Source: Escherichia coli (GTDB lineage: Bacteria > Pseudomonadota > Gammaproteobacteria > Enterobacterales > Enterobacteriaceae). Taken from it: DNA of 64,000 bases. Positions 3,350 to 61,753 of the stretch are shown one piece after another (the stretch's first letter is position 1; each line of letters starts with the position of its first letter). The notes beneath the pieces are model-generated. The model saw nothing but the letters and a program-made list of their open reading frames with translations. It did no database searches and was not told the origin of the DNA. The translations under genes and the position numbers were made by a program. The stretch is taken from the NCBI RefSeq assembly GCF_013315695.1, contig NZ_CP054353.1. One strand, given 5' to 3'.

Positions 3350-4402
3350 TCAGTCATCCGTATCAGAAAAGTTTTTACGCGTTTTTACCTGCGCCATGCT
3401 TTCCAGAATACGGTGATAGTTTTCGAAACGGGTTTCCGCGATTTTCCCTTCCTCAACCGCTTCCCGGATAGCGCAGCCCGGATCGGTATCGTGTTTGCAA
3501 TCGCGATATTTACACAGACCTAAATAGTCATGGAATTCGACAAAGCCCTGAGTGATTTGTTCCGGCTCCAGGTGCCAGAGGCCGAACTCACGCACTCCTG
3601 GGGAGTCAATCACATCACCGCCGTGCGGGAAGTGATACAGCCGAGCGGCGGTCGTGGTGTGCTGACCGAGCCCCGAGTTGTCAGAGATATCGTTGGTCAG
3701 GATCTCTTTTTGCAGCCCCAGCAACGCATTCAGCAGGCTGGATTTGCCGACGCCAGACTGCCCGGCAAAAATGCTGATGCGCCCGGTCAACGCCTCTTCC
3801 AGCGGTTTTAGCCCATCCTGAGTATGGCTGGAAACCATCAATACGCGATAACCGATATTGCGGTAGATATCCATCTGCTCGTTGACGAACGCCATGCCTT
3901 CGTCGTCCAGCAGGTCTATCTTGTTGAGCACAATAATCGGCTCAATCTGCAAGGTTTCGCAGGCCACCAGGTAACGGTCGATAATATTGAGCGACAGCTC
4001 CGGCAAAATGGCGGAGACAATGACAATCTGGTCGATGTTGGCGGCAATAGGTTTTACGCCGTCGTAGAAATCCGGACGCGTCAACACCGAGGTACGCTCA
4101 TGCACCGCTTCCACGATCCCTTTGACATTTACGCCTTCCGCCGCCGGTTTACCCGGACGCCAGACTACGCGGTCGCCGGTTACCAGCGAACGGATGGTAC
4201 GGCGAATATTGCAGCGGTGAACGTCGCCATCGGCGGATTCCACATCAGCGTGCATACCAAAGCGGCTGATGACGATACCTTCATCAGGCTCGCCAAACAG
4301 ATTGTCGTCGTAGTCGGGCTTCTCCTTAGACGTTTTAAGACGACGCTGGTGATTGGCGTTCACGCGGCGCTGCTGGCCTTTGGAGAGTTTATTTTTACTC
4401 AA
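3350..4402 (-). CDS. rsgA: Ribosome small-subunit biogenesis GTPase RsgA
   Basis: ORF 3350..4435; circularly permuted GTPase motifs (GQSGVGKSS, DxxG) and C-terminal Zn-binding cysteines; 350 aa from TTG at 4400-4402. Confidence 0.9.
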
Positions 4403-5251: not shown

Positions 5252-5327
<76 letters not shown>

Positions 5328-5363
5328 AAATTTGAAAAGTGCTGCAAAGCACAGACCACCCAA

Positions 5364-5439
<76 letters not shown>

Positions 5440-5474
5440 AAATTTGAAAGTGCTGTAAGGCACAGACCACCCAA

Positions 5475-5550
<76 letters not shown>

Positions 5551-5819: not shown

Positions 5820-6957
5820 TCAGGCGTCACGCGGTAACCCTTTTTCAATCACCCGAACCAGACGCTGTTTTTTCGGCAATTGCACTTCGACTATGCACGC
5901 ATTTCGTCTCTCTATTTGCTGCGCAATCGCCCACGCTATGTGCTCATCGAGAAGTGGGTGCTCACCTTTACGACTTTCCAGCGCTGTCAAAATCGTTTCA
6001 TCCCAAGGGGCATTGCCTAATGCTACGGCGATATTACGCAGCCAACGCAGGTGACCAATACGACGAATCGCCGATCCTTCCGTGACTTTTAAAAACTTCT
6101 CTTCGCTCCAGGCGAATAACTCAATGAGTTCCGGTGCGTGTAGCGGCTTACGCGGGCTGAAATCCTCTTCTGTGGTGAGTTGTGAATAGCGATTCCACGG
6201 GCAGATAAGCTGGCAGTCATCGCAACCGTAAATACGGTTTCCCATTAACGGTCGCAACTCTTCCGGGATCGCCCCTTCAAGTTCGATGGTGAGATAAGAG
6301 ATACAGCGGCGAGCATCGACGGTATATGGCTCGACGATGGCACCGGTCGGGCAAATCGTCATACAGGCCACGCATTTGCCGCATCCTTCCTCGACTGGTT
6401 GATCCACGGGCAGCGGAATATCGACCAGCAATTCGCCTAAAAAGAAGAACGAACCGGCCTCGCGATTGAGGATAAGTGAGTGCTTACCTGTCCAGCCGAG
6501 CCCAGCTTTTTCAGCTAACGGGCGCTCGAGAATAGGCGCAGAATCGACAAACGGTCTAAAATTCAGCGAAACACAATGTTGCTGAATCATCTCGCCCAGC
6601 TTTTTGAGTCGGTTGCGCAGAAGTTTGTGATAGTCACGGCCCAGCGCATAACGGCTAACATAGCCGAGTTTGGGGTTTTTCAGCGTGCTGGCAAATGCGG
6701 TGTTAGCAGGAAGGTAATTCATCCGCACGCTGATCACGCGCAGCGTACCGGGCAATAACTCATGAGGGCGAGCGCGCAGCATACCGTGACGTGCCATCCA
6801 GTCCATTTCGCCGTGGTATTGTTTGTCCAGCCATGCTTGCAGTTTGGGCTCGGACTCGCTGAGATCGGTATCGGTAATACCTACCTGCTGAAAGCCCAGT
6901 TCCAGCCCCCACTGTTTAATTTTTTGCGCTAACTGATTGAGATCGAGGGGCTCTGAC

Positions 6958-43321: not shown

Positions 43322-43629
43322 AGATACCTCCTCGACGGCTGACTTTGTGTGCTCTCCTCTGTGATGATCTTCTGATTTAATTTTAATCAATGATAAAGAA
43401 GTTGATGGTGACCATTTCTGATGCAGTTGTTCGAAAAAACACTGTGACGGAATGTGATGAACTTCAAATCAGGGAGTTAGTTCTTTTGAGCGAAAGATGA
43501 GATTTATTTGTCGGCTGGCCTTGAGTTTAGCGGGGCATACAAGTACTATAACGCGTCATTTTTCAGCCGACCTTTAACACGTTCCTTGCCTCCCCGGGAT
43601 TCGGCTGACCCAGACAGGAGGCTGAATAA

Positions 43630-44043
<414 letters not shown>

Positions 44044-45952: not shown

Positions 45953-46298
45953 TGTAATGTTACCTGTTTAATGTTTTTATAAATATCGCAGCTGATGTTC
46001 ACAGAAAAAGAATCGATATTAATAAAAATAAGTTTGTTTTCTGAAGTAGTGAAAATAGCGGATGGTGAAAGATATTAATATCAAAAATCGCTCATTATGG
46101 ATATAACGATGCCCCCGGGGAGAAAATGACTTCCACGCCTTCTACCATACATTCTTGTTGTGCGGTATGTAATTATTCTACGCTGTTGGTATCGGTGCGT
46201 TTGTTAATCATCTGGTTAACCAGCCACAAAAAGCCATTGAGAAAGTTATTGATTCTACATGGAATTATTATATTTCTAATCCCTGGTTTTTAAAAGTT

Positions 46299-46514
46299 GT
46301 GCATAGTGAAAATCAAAGTAAAGGTGTGCATTATGCAAAATCACAGCGTCTCTTAGAAATTAACCATACGCACTTGCAGTTAATGGAATCCTTATTGGAT
46401 GAAGGGAAGAAACACAATATTTTTAAGCCAGATAGCGACCCATTGCAGGTGAATATTAATATTGCTGCGCTTGGGGGATATTATTTGATCAACCAGCATA
46501 CGCTTGGCCTGGTT
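46299..46514 (+). pseudogene. ytfA: ytfA-like remnant of a TetR-family regulator (C-terminal ligand-binding portion only), followed by the IS left end
   Basis: ORF 46299..46790 begins with TetR C-terminal-like sequence and no HTH, then reads through the IS left-end hairpin; the distal part is not genuine coding sequence. Confidence 0.45.
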
Positions 46515-46574
46515 TATCTGGTGCGCCGTAAAACCCCGTCCTTCAGGGCGGGGATATACGGCGCGGTTTTCCAC

Positions 46575-47006
46575 CTAACCAGGTGTTTGCTGTTGTTCAA
46601 TGTATTGACGGATGGCGGATATTGGCGCACCTCCGCAGCTACTGGCAAAATAGCCAGGACTCCACAAAACGCCTTTGTAGTAATACCTGACTGCAATATC
46701 TGGTCGATCTCGTCGCAGTCACCTACCCGATACGCCTTTGAGGCTGTTTACCAGACTGGATATCGCCAGTTTGGGAGGATAGTTAATTAACAAATGGACG
46801 TGATCTGGTTCGCCATCCATTTCAACCAGTTCAGCTTCAAAATCAGCACATACATTTGAAAAGTAAGTGCGTAGTTTTTCTGTCGCGTCATAGTCAAAAA
46901 TCTGACGTCGGTATCTGGTGACAAAGACCAGGTGAACATGCATCAGGAAAACACAATGCCTTCCCCGTCGGATATCGGTTTCTTTATTCACAGACCAAAG
47001 TATCAT
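46575..47006 (-). pseudogene. tnpA: IS200-type Y1 (HUH) transposase TnpA interrupted by an in-frame TGA at codon 96
   Basis: ORF track 46719..47006 gives 95 aa (...[27 protein letters not shown]); the same frame continues past the TGA as [44 protein letters not shown], the conserved TnpA C-terminus. Confidence 0.7.
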
Positions 47007-47013
47007 TTGGCCT

Positions 47014-48222
47014 GTGAAACGACTACAGGCATTTAAATTCCAGTTAAGACCCGGTGGTCAACAGGAGCGTGAAATGAGGCGCTTCGCAGGCGCATGCCGT
47101 TTCGTTTTCAATCGTGCTCTGGCGCTTCAGAATGAGAATCATGAGGCCGGTAATAAATACATCCCTTACGGGAAAATGGCTTCCTGGCTGGTTGAGTGGA
47201 AAAACGCCACTGAAATGCAATGGCTTAAAGATTCGCCCTCACAGCCATTGCAACAGTCACTGAAAGACCTTGAGCGGGCTTACAAAAACTTCTTCCAGAA
47301 GCGGGCTGCTTTTCCCCGATTCAAAAAGCGGGGACAGAATGATGCATTCCGCTACCCGCAGGGCGTTAAGCTCGATCAGGAAAACAGCCGTATTTTTCTG
47401 CCGAAACTTGGCTGGATGCGCTACCGGAACAGCCGTCAGGTCACGGGTGTTGTGAAAAATGTCACTGTCAGCCAGTCCTGCGGTAAGTGGTACATCAGTA
47501 TTCAGACAGAAAGTGAAGTATCCACTCCGGTTCACCCTTCAGCATCAATGGTCGGGCTGGATGCTGGCGTGGCTAAACTCGCCACGCTGTCAGATGGCAC
47601 AGTCTTTGAGCCTGTAAACAGTTTTCAGAAAAACCAGAAGACGCTGGCGAGACTTCAGCGACAGTTAAGCCGCAAGGTCGAATTCAGCAATAACTGGCAG
47701 AAGCAGAAACGCAAAATACAGCGACTGCATTCCCGTATCGCAAATATCCGCAGGGACTACCTTCACAAAGTCACAACGACCGTCAGCAAAAACCACGCAA
47801 TGATAGTCATTGAGGATTTGAAGGTCAGCAACATGTCAAAGTCAGCAGCGGGTACGGTCAGCCAGCCGGGGCGCAATGTCCGGGCAAAATCAGGTTTAAA
47901 CCGTTCGATACTGGATCAGGGCTGGTATGAAATGCGCCGCCAGCTTGAGTACAAGCAGCTCTGGCGTGGCGGTCAGGTGCTTGCTGTTCCGCCAGCGTAC
48001 ACAAGCCAGCGTTGCGCGTGCTGTGGTCATACAGCGAAAGAAAATCGCCTGTCACAAAGTAAATTCAGATGCCAGGCATGTGGATATACAGCGAACGCTG
48101 ATGTAAATGGCGCTCGTAACATTTTAGCGGCGGGGCACGCCGTTCTTGCCTGTGGAGAGATGGTGCAGTCAGGCCGCTCGTTGAAGCAGGAACCCACCGA
48201 AATGATTCAGGCGACAGCCTGA
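47014..48222 (+). CDS. tnpB: TnpB (IS605 OrfB-family RuvC-like RNA-guided nuclease)
   Basis: ORF 47014..48222, 402 aa, GTG start; C-terminal zinc finger CACCGH...CQACG and RuvC-III-like ADVNGARNI. Confidence 0.85.
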
Positions 48223-48356
48223 ACGAAGCAGGGATCCACGTCCTTCAGGGCGTGGAGGATGTCAACATATCAGTATGGTTTCCCCCCAGGCACTGGAAGC
48301 CAGACGTAAGGTCATCAAAGAGACGCTCCTTAGCTGGCTTTTGGTTGATCCTTCAT

Positions 48357-48995
48357 CTACCGCGCACGAATAAAACTGCCATCCGGCTGGCGGGTAAACA
48401 GGACCTGTTGATTATTCCCCGTATCAATGGTTAAGCCCGTCACCACGCCGCTGGCGTTCTGGCGGATTTTCACCATCTGCCCATTTTGCAAATTACTCAG
48501 CGGCTTACCCGCGCCTTCTACCTGCGCCATTGCATAGACATCGGTAGCGGGCAGTCCGTGGTCGCGGAACAGCTGCGCCATCGTTTTACCGGGTTCGACA
48601 CGGTAAGAGCGCCATTGATTATCAATTCCGCTATCTGGCTGGAATGGTTGCGTTTGGGTAGTTTGCGGCTGTTCTTCTGGCTGGCCTTCCTGTATAGGTT
48701 CTGGAGCGACCGGAGCCACCTGATCAGGATCATTTTGTGGTGTGACTAATTGCGCCCGCAGCTGTTCTTCTGTCGGCGGTTGTGATTGCGACTGAATATC
48801 TAACTGCGCTTCACGCGTCACCACCGGCGCGTTGGGCGTATCATCAGATGGAAGCAGAAATCCGACCACCAATACAATGGCGGCAATAATGATCCCCCGA
48901 CGATGCATCGGCGGCAGCGGGTCCATGAAGCGAAAATTGTCCGGCGCGTGCCAGACTTTCTCCAGGGTTGGTTTTAGTTCAAAGCGCCCGGGCAT
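48357..48995 (-). CDS. ytfB: Cell-division / opacity-associated protein YtfB (OapA family)
   Basis: ORF 48357..49031; start [21 protein letters not shown] at ATG 48995, 212 aa, one TM segment, Pro/Gln-rich linker, C-terminal OapA domain. Confidence 0.85.
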
Positions 48996-49213
48996 GGTTT
49001 CCTCCTGCTCCGCGTCTTGTTCCTCAATCATAGCCTATGAATAAGCTAACGCTATGATGTCCGTGGTAAACCCGCCTTTATTATATTCATACGGGATATT
49101 GCTATTGTTTCTTTTTCCCCGGGATTTGTCATCATTCCTGCGACAAAGTTTTACCCAAAGAAGTGTGGCTGATATGCTGCCCGCTACTTTTATATCCTAA
49201 GAAAGGAAATACG

Positions 49214-61477: not shown

Positions 61478-61654
61478 ATCTTATCCGACCTTTCAGGCCA
61501 GATCCTCGGAAGGGGAAGTTGATTAATTTGTGTGAAATACACATTGAAAGCCGATTCGAAGAAAGTGAACCGGCATTTTCAGTGGCTAGTATAGCGTAAG
61601 GTACTGTAAAGCCGCCAGAGGGTTAAAATTCAGACTGCTGATAAATGCAAAACT

Positions 61655-61753
61655 GCCTGATGCGCTATGCCGATCAGGCCTACGCACTCGTTGCAATATA
61701 TTGAATTTGGACGATTTTGTAGGCCTGGTAAGGCGTTTACGTCGCATCCGGCA
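61655..61753. repeat. REP/RIP element: inverted REP units flanking an IHF-type L motif
   Basis: GCCTGATGCGCTATGCCGATCAGGCCTAC ... TTGCAATATATTGAATTTG ... TGTAGGCCTGGTAAGGCGTTTACGTCGCATCCGGCAT. Confidence 0.65.

Follow-up and report, generated by a model that had tools for sequence, protein, structure and literature searches.

In IS608 (ISHp608) of H. pylori, the model element for the mechanism of Y1 HUH peel-and-paste transposition, the choice of target is directed by the transposon itself: its AAAG pairs with the target TTAC, and its right end (RE) finishes with TCAA. For TnpB, the guide comes from the sequence that flanks the RE on its 3' side, and the transposon-associated motif (TAM) is the motif 5' of the left end (LE), so that the two abut in the donor joint after scarless excision (bioRxiv 10.1101/2023.03.14.532601). 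In the same work TTTAT was shown to be the TAM of ISGst2 TnpB2. On the RNA side, HgcC and the sotRNAs have been tied to tnpB 3' ends (PMC4615843), and RAGATH-18 RNAs have been identified as TnpB guide RNAs (PMC11061315). Here we analyze an insertion sequence (IS) in a 64,000-nucleotide stretch of Escherichia coli DNA (contig NZ_CP054353.1, assembly GCF_013315695.1; hereafter the window, whose positions we use throughout). It lies in a remnant of ytfA, carries divergent tnpA and tnpB genes, and is almost certainly an isoform of IS609, a member of the IS200/IS605 family.

The reading we favor, to which we assign a probability of roughly 85%, is that this IS609 isoform has lost tnpA to a nonsense codon, retains a tnpB and guide-RNA (omega-RNA) module that looks functional, and would home by the TnpB mechanism. 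The element is already known and behaves as its family predicts. IS609 is an ISfinder name that turns up routinely when E. coli genomes are screened for mobile elements, K-12 has an annotated copy, and the IS609 genes carry labels from the Prokaryotic Genome Annotation Pipeline (PGAP), so that the locus has little significance beyond correct annotation. What the analysis yields are the exact ends of this copy, the lesion in tnpA, and a comparative model of the omega-RNA with its predicted TAM (TTTAT) and guide. A literature search on IS609, InsQ and EcoTnpB/ydcM/yncK returned no work on the function of either the TnpB or the omega-RNA of E. coli IS609. An ‘IS609’ TnpB is among nine proteins purified for trans-cleavage assays, and the main text of that study gives no result for it (PMC12781874).

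Identity, ends and target site

By ISfinder convention, isoforms share at least 95% nucleotide identity with the reference element. Over 1748 bp, the window element is 97.5% identical (1706 of 1749 aligned columns) to the IS609 annotated in K-12 MG1655 (NC_000913.3, 1503161-1504908), where the record names a mobile_genetic_element ‘insertion sequence:IS609’ with a tnpA pseudogene (yncK, 432 nt) and, on the opposite strand, insQ (1209 nt). The K-12 copy has the same length, divergent gene layout, end structures, TTTAT target and TCAA terminus, and the same TGA at tnpA codon 96. It differs by 43 nucleotides and 12 TnpB amino acids, and in lying between ydcL and ydcO rather than in ytfA, which gives it a different guide sequence. 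Complete E. coli genomes match a 2-kb query centered on the element at up to 99.4% identity, and the closest of them annotate its genes as ‘tnpA: IS200/IS605 family transposase’ and ‘RNA-guided endonuclease InsQ/TnpB family protein’; PGAP labels for the orthologous genes read ‘IS609 family transposase’ and ‘RNA-guided endonuclease InsQ/TnpB family protein’. The initial annotation, made from the window sequence alone, had thus chosen the right family without recognizing the named element.

As K-12 MG1655 carries no insertion at the ytfA site, it provides an empty allele from which the ends can be read. The IS-free K-12 ytfA can be aligned to the window as far as 46518 and again from 48266 onward. 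The single C shared by the two alignments means that the occupied site has no target-site duplication relative to the K-12 empty site, GGTTTAT/CACATCAG (a slash marks the joint). The one-base ambiguity that this C creates is settled by the K-12 IS609 annotation, whose left boundary falls after TTTAT and whose right boundary falls after ...GGATGTCAA; the element is therefore 46518-48265. The right end proposed initially stands, and the left end moves from 46515 to 46518, in agreement with both the K-12 empty site and the relatives.

A scan of one genome per species gave 58 related loci, among them about 30 independent insertions spanning Escherichia, Citrobacter, Klebsiella, Serratia, Yersinia, Morganella, Xenorhabdus, Photorhabdus, Pantoea and others. 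In these, the left end is preceded by TTTAT or TTTAC, and rarely by CTTAY. The right end always finishes with GGAGGATGTCAA, which is invariant in 31 relatives, and the flanks past the invariant GTCAA are unrelated between insertions. Insertion thus occurs 3' of a fixed tetra- or pentanucleotide without target duplication. The bases directly 5' of the foot of the LE hairpin (AAAA at 46530-46533 in the window) track this target: AAAA accompanies ...TTAT and AAAG accompanies ...TTAC, with the last base of each covarying, in 17 of 20 elements; one element (L004) departs from the pattern, and the remaining two carry a 1-nt deletion. As far as alignments can tell, this covariation is the transposon-directed target rule of IS608, with the target read by the bases 5' of the LE hairpin.

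Both ends carry subterminal hairpins on the same strand, and there are no terminal inverted repeats. The LE hairpin, CCCCGTCC-TTCA-GGGCGGGG (46534-46553, plus strand), and the RE hairpin, CCACGTCC-TTCA-GGGCGTGG (48236-48255, plus strand), are 90% identical over 21 nt. Folded as single-stranded DNA, the LE reaches -18 kcal/mol (z -5.0) and the RE has z -2.75, each better than 200 of 200 dinucleotide shuffles, and the RE hairpin pairs covary across relatives. Sequence, strand and folding therefore agree with the earlier proposal of matching hairpins that bracket a minus-strand tnpA and a plus-strand tnpB, and the family assignment gains from the hairpins, the TnpA profile score given below, the fixed TTTAY target and the lack of target duplication. 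Hairpins with a UUCA loop are a motif of tnpB-associated sotRNAs and of the HgcC family (Gomes-Filho et al., PMC4615843), and the RE hairpin of the window element shares it. The likeness to IS608 extends to subterminal hairpins on one strand, insertion without target duplication, the TCAA terminus of the RE, a guide tetranucleotide that tracks the target, and TnpA homology (E 1e-18, with HUH motif and tyrosine aligned). IS608 differs in having co-directional tnpA and tnpB and a TTAC target, whereas the window copy has divergent genes, TTTAT and a tnpA pseudogene. On the favored reading, IS609 entered the ytfA remnant by single-strand ‘peel-and-paste’ transposition, immediately 3' of TTTAT.

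Table 1. Window coordinates of the element, its parts and neighboring features (LE, left end; RE, right end; TAM, transposon-associated motif)
Feature	Position	Strand	Remarks
ytfA (TetR/AcrR) remnant, left part	46223-46517	+	about codons 82-180 of the intact 215-codon gene
sot0042, weaker match over LE hairpin	46450-46554		14.6 bits, E 0.97
TTTAT, insertion target beside LE and predicted TnpB TAM	46513-46517	+	flank reads ...GGTTTAT
Complete IS609 isoform	46518-48265	+	1748 bp; length and gene layout as in K-12 IS609
LE	46518-46574	+	inner hairpin 46534-46541/46546-46553, TTCA loop; outer stem about 46523-46530/46557-46564
tnpA (Y1 HUH transposase) pseudogene	46575-47006	-	TGA at 46719-46721 in place of Leu96
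tnpB, RNA-guided endonuclease	47014-48222	+	402 aa, GTG start, 1209-nt reading frame, full length
sot0042 (RF02656) match	48095-48256	+	17.4 bits, gathering 88
Predicted omega-RNA scaffold	48119-48265	+	last 104 nt of tnpB including stop (48119-48222) plus RE
Predicted closing helix	48119-48124 with 48257-48262	+	varies on one side only
Predicted helix	48127-48132 with 48138-48143	+	
RAGATH-18-like module	48149-48153 with 48186-48190, enclosing 48157-48164 with 48173-48179	+	GC/AU switches at two pairs
RAGATH-18 (RF03064) match	48149-48192	+	29.5 bits, E 0.008, gathering 44.9
HgcC (RF00062) match	48155-48278	+	24.7 bits, E 0.006, gathering 50
Predicted helix	48197-48198 with 48231-48232	+	
Predicted helix	48202-48212 with 48217-48226	+	
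RE core	48231-48265	+	GGGAT, hairpin 48236-48243/48248-48255 (TTCA loop), then AGGATGTCAA ending in cleavage site TCAA
Predicted RE hairpin helix	48235-48244 with 48247-48256	+	
Predicted guide segment (CATATCAGTATGGTTTCCCC)	48266-48285	+	flank 3' of RE; predicted length 16-20 nt
ytfA remnant, right part	48266-48373	+	codons 181-215 and stop; overlaps ytfB 3' end by 17 nt
ytfB	48357-49031	-	3' end overlapped by ytfA remnant
Rfam matches outside the element	5252-5547, 43566-43650, 56845-56967, 61539-61596, 61676-61717		at gathering

The tnpA lesion and the tnpB reading frame

The initial annotation described tnpA as broken, and the lesion is a single in-frame TGA at codon 96, not a frameshift. 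A C for A at 46720, which turns TTA into TGA, is the sole difference from the intact 143-aa TnpA of the closest genomes. When this codon is repaired, the protein scores 144.5 bits against NCBIfam NF033573 transpos_IS200 (cut-off 55). It aligns to the solved IS608 and ISDra2 TnpA structures in the PDB with H69/H71 as the HUH motif and Tyr135 opposite IS608 Tyr127, which we take to be the catalytic tyrosine, so that a Y1 HUH TnpA is encoded on the repaired frame. In the window copy the TTA-to-TGA change would truncate TnpA: the 95-aa product retains the HUH motif and loses Tyr135, and being cut short ahead of the catalytic tyrosine, it should leave the copy unable to excise or transpose unaided.

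Codon 96 encodes Leu in relatives at least 75% identical, and Arg in a Photorhabdus/Klebsiella group of about 50% identity; as Leu96 is conserved, the TGA is the derived state. In queries of 55 nt centered on the single-nucleotide difference, 2728 E. coli genomes carry the TGA allele, at 3374 places in all, and 3896 carry the Leu (TTA) allele, at 6359 places. Copies at the ytfA locus encode Leu in all eight sampled genomes and in the closest genome, which implies that the window TGA either arose independently or came in by gene conversion. When the IS alone is compared with complete E. coli genomes, the best match is 99.3% identical and lies at the same locus, and so speaks neither for nor against conversion from elsewhere. 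The K-12 IS609 copy has the same TGA at its different locus. In the window the stop reads AGG-TGA-C. TGA-C is the weakest E. coli termination signal, and low-level read-through may occur.

Two further observations concern the tnpA frame. In seven of the eight sampled ytfA::IS609 copies the TAG stop has become CAG (46577 A to G), which extends the reading frame into the left end, and PGAP flags those genes as incomplete pseudogenes; the window and the O157:H7 strain 86-24 keep the TAG (46575-46577). In relatives, tnpA starts at a GTG corresponding to 46990-46992 rather than at the annotated ATG at 47004-47006.

In tnpB, on the other side of the element, the reading frame is full length. The protein aligns over its whole length to ISDra2 TnpB (8BF8/8EXA; E 6e-54) and to the TnpB of ISFba1, an IS607 element (8IAZ; E 3.6e-45), and scores 391.8 bits against NCBIfam NF040570 guided_TnpB (cut-off 100). 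It contains the Pfam domains HTH_OrfB_IS605 (PF12323), OrfB_IS605 (PF01385) and Cas12f1-like TNB (PF07282), giving the HTH/WED-REC, split RuvC and zinc-ribbon (TNB) architecture of a TnpB nuclease. Counted along the alignment, D183/E267/D363 correspond to the RuvC triad D191/E278/D361 of ISDra2, and C334, C337, C353 and C356 form the CxxC...CxxC zinc finger. All catalytic and zinc-binding residues are thus present, as expected of the full-length TnpB with RuvC motif and zinc finger that had been noticed at the outset. Neither of the sequence features that would have told against that description, missing RuvC residues or hairpins unlike IS200/IS605 ends, was found. ISDra2 TnpB (8BF8/8EXA/8H1J) further resembles the window system in having a guide RNA that overlaps the tnpB 3' end and the RE. 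It differs in its TAM (TTGAT, compared with a predicted TTTAT here) and in lacking an insertion of about 15 residues that follows RuvC-II in the window TnpB.

Between copies and genera, the ratio of nonsynonymous to synonymous differences per site (pN/pS) in tnpB is 0.12-0.29, and to judge from these ratios the gene is under purifying selection. In relatives, a conserved TATAAT lies 7-8 nt upstream of an ATG tnpB start (about 1487-1503, compared with window 47000-47016), which suggests that their tnpB leader is very short or absent. In the IS609 copies of E. coli, the corresponding sequences are TATCAT and a GTG start codon. A 13-bp inverted repeat across both start codons (46987-46999/47006-47018) was considered as a regulatory element and dropped, as it is not conserved in relatives.

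The predicted omega-RNA and its guide

The initial annotation proposed an omega-RNA at about 48100-48270. To model it, we aligned the last 180 nt of 31 elements and derived a consensus structure with RNAalifold. The consensus has 48 pairs in nine helices, of which the window copy retains 47. Standard pairs fill 97.2% of cells, compared with 38-48% when the 3' partners are slid by 1-3 columns; 14 pairs show compensatory double changes, compared with 2-7 in the slid controls; and the covariation score is 0.242, compared with at most 0.085 in controls, with none of 500 shuffles reaching the observed values, although these controls are favorable by construction, as the structure was derived from the same sequences and the region is largely coding. 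The simplest explanation for helices far upstream of the RE hairpin nevertheless lies at the RNA level. The predicted 5' boundary of the RNA lies between 48119 and 48149. In this model, the last ~100 nt of tnpB and the right end would encode a structured omega-RNA, and its 3' extension, CATATCAGTATGGTTT..., would be the guide. The proposed region thus coincides with a conserved, covarying fold, and the arrangement appears to be that of a TnpB nuclease with a structured RNA at the tnpB 3' end and RE and a guide in the RE flank.

An E-value-thresholded Rfam scan of 46000-48800 gave four matches below gathering (Table 1). Matches at homologous positions occur in relatives: HgcC in eight (25.5-34.8 bits), sot0042 in four and RAGATH-18 in one, with sot0042 scores of 17-24 bits set against a gathering threshold of 88. 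The region resembles RAGATH-18, HgcC and sot0042 and is a curated member of none. Its core, CCUGUGGAG...CGUUGAAGCAGGAA, matches the RAGATH-18 consensus almost base for base. We tentatively suggest, at somewhat under even odds, that the IS609 omega-RNA holds, within the tnpB reading frame, a RAGATH-18-like core whose internal stem covaries. The TnpB of ISFba1, whose right-end element RNA (reRNA) derives from RAGATH-18 (PDB 8IAZ), is homologous to the window TnpB over its full length and would share this core. IS607 elements differ in that they use a serine recombinase and their reRNA lies wholly downstream of tnpB (PMC11061315), whereas the window element has a Y1 TnpA and an RNA that overlaps the coding sequence. 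If the suggestion is right, a Y1-TnpA (IS605-type) element, too, employs the RNA module that has been described as the hallmark of TnpB guide RNAs in IS607. The class of guide RNA would then follow the TnpB lineage and not the type of transposase, and the Rfam RAGATH-18 and HgcC models would miss a large enterobacterial branch.

If the 3' flank of the RE supplies the guide, then the predicted target of the window TnpB is TTTAT followed by CATATCAGTATGGTTT..., the sequence formed when the element leaves. By analogy with the characterized systems, we infer transcription and processing of the omega-RNA, TnpB activity, the role of TTTAT as TAM, and the length of the guide. ISGst2 TnpB2 of Geobacillus stearothermophilus is the closest parallel, with TTTAT beside its LE and a donor joint made of TAM and RE flank; homing has been shown experimentally there and is predicted here, for a copy without a working TnpA in cis. 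Scarless excision at ytfA would leave the joint GGTTTAT/CATATCAG. The TnpB-omega-RNA complex would recognize TTTAT plus guide, that is, the scarless empty ytfA joint, and its cleavage would force repair from an IS-bearing copy, resulting in homing or retention.

Two empty ytfA alleles from other E. coli (L063 and L064) read TTTAT/CATATCAGTATGGTTTCCCCCC, an exact match to TAM and guide, so the sequence prerequisites of the homing model exist in nature. K-12 and a further allele (L062) have C instead of T at guide position 3. With 55-nt queries spanning either the ytfA/LE junction or the empty joint, the occupied junction was found in 1741 of 5426 complete E. coli genomes and the empty joint in 3097. 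As ytfA::IS609 is polymorphic and some empty alleles are perfect predicted targets, the locus offers a natural test case for TnpB homing in its native host.

Activity, mobility and the surrounding locus

The TnpB/omega-RNA pair is probably active, though with considerable room for doubt, and a number of observations weigh against it. A scan of 46300-48500 for sigma-70 promoters and terminators gave nothing above shuffled expectation, and tnpB begins with GTG, preceded by TATCAT in place of the TATAAT box that relatives have 7-8 nt upstream. Of the 11 differences between this tnpB and its nearest copy, seven are nonsynonymous (pN/pS 0.5, from few sites). The helix-terminal pair 48202/48226 of the omega-RNA is A.A in the window copy. 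The single-sequence fold of 48119-48285 is modestly better than shuffles (z -1.95), so that the structural claim rests on the comparative data, and no Rfam family reaches its gathering threshold within the element. In mutation-accumulation lines, K-12 IS609 gave rise to no new insertions (PMC5009759). In interference assays, IS608 TnpB showed no activity (bioRxiv 10.1101/2023.03.14.532601), and an intact sequence is therefore no guarantee of activity.

Together with the tnpA nonsense codon, the weak expression signals, the K-12 immobility, the inactive IS608 TnpB, the broken omega-RNA pair and the nonsynonymous changes would fit an inert relic, in which expression and activity have ceased throughout the element, including TnpB and the omega-RNA, and what persists is young, neutral, decaying DNA. 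We regard this as unlikely. The tnpB frame is intact over 1209 nt with every catalytic and zinc-binding residue in place, its pN/pS between copies and genera is low, 47 of 48 omega-RNA pairs are kept, and compensatory changes accompany the conservation of the module across Enterobacterales.

A nonsense codon in tnpA need not immobilize the element, as TnpA supplied in trans by another IS609 copy, or read-through of the TGA, might still move it, with TnpB homing remaining relevant. Both ends fit the family consensus, target and guide bases included; E. coli genomes have IS609-like DNA at up to 9 places each (median 2), with the Leu96 allele widespread; derivatives that lack tnpA and keep both ends exist, as do plasmid matches to tnpB-RE alone; and the stop has the weakly terminating TGA-C context. 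On the other hand, the 64-kb window holds no second IS609 copy, many IS609 tnpA genes are pseudogenes (the 3374 TGA places, and loss of the stop in seven of eight sampled ytfA copies), and no movement of IS609 was seen in K-12. Mobility of this kind is doubtful. The least probable reading by far is domestication as a TldR-like RNA-guided repressor, or regulation of the convergent ytfB by read-through antisense RNA: transcription continuing beyond the RE would yield antisense RNA to the 3' end of ytfB, which begins 91 nt downstream, and TnpB domestication is documented in bioRxiv 10.1101/2023.11.30.569447, but in E. coli the locus is polymorphic for presence or absence of the element rather than fixed, the guide matches the empty site and not a promoter, and we rejected a TldR-like regulator because the RuvC triad is intact and the gene sits in a complete transposon with both ends.

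Shortened derivatives of the element are found in several settings. In Citrobacter amalonaticus, a tnpA-less derivative of 1336 bp (L005, 1417-2752) has the LE directly upstream of tnpB and the RE. Among 1653 matching records, many listed matches from Klebsiella, Salmonella and E. coli plasmids cover only tnpB-RE (query 497-1747), some of them in P1-like phage-plasmids. Among six further loci (L049, L050, L052, L057, L058 and L061) are remnants with the last 30-110 tnpB codons and an intact right end, and L050 is a 512-bp LE...RE miniature. In these remnants, the omega-RNA-encoding part seems to outlast the rest of tnpB.

The chromosomal context is the E. coli order rpsF-priB-rpsR-rplI-yjfZ-ytfA-ytfB-fklB-cycA. 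The initial annotation set the element between a ytfA-like remnant and ytfB and suspected that it had truncated ytfA. The nearby genes are as described, but the element lies inside the remnant, with TetR fragments on both sides, and splits it exactly after codon 180 of 215; the loss of the 5' part is not the work of IS609. Some strains have an intact ytfA, a 648-bp TetR/AcrR gene (NZ_CP019280), and homology to it in both the window and K-12 begins only at gene nt 246. As this truncation is common to IS-free K-12, it predates IS609 or is independent of it. PGAP labels the left ytfA part in the closest genome ‘missing N-terminus and C-terminus’. Strains with intact ytfA have a 3-ketoacyl-ACP reductase gene upstream, where the window and K-12 have yjfZ, which points to a separate replacement or deletion event at the locus.

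The window ytfA remnant (46231-46435) has 9-14 differences in about 290 bp from those of eight other ytfA::IS609 genomes, and the flanks 46400-46517 and 48266-48400 do not differ from two cheese isolates. Elsewhere in the window, matches at the Rfam gathering threshold are to three tandem tRNA genes (with identical scores), the RpsF leader, and the small RNAs ES239, STnc450 and ES036/CssrF.

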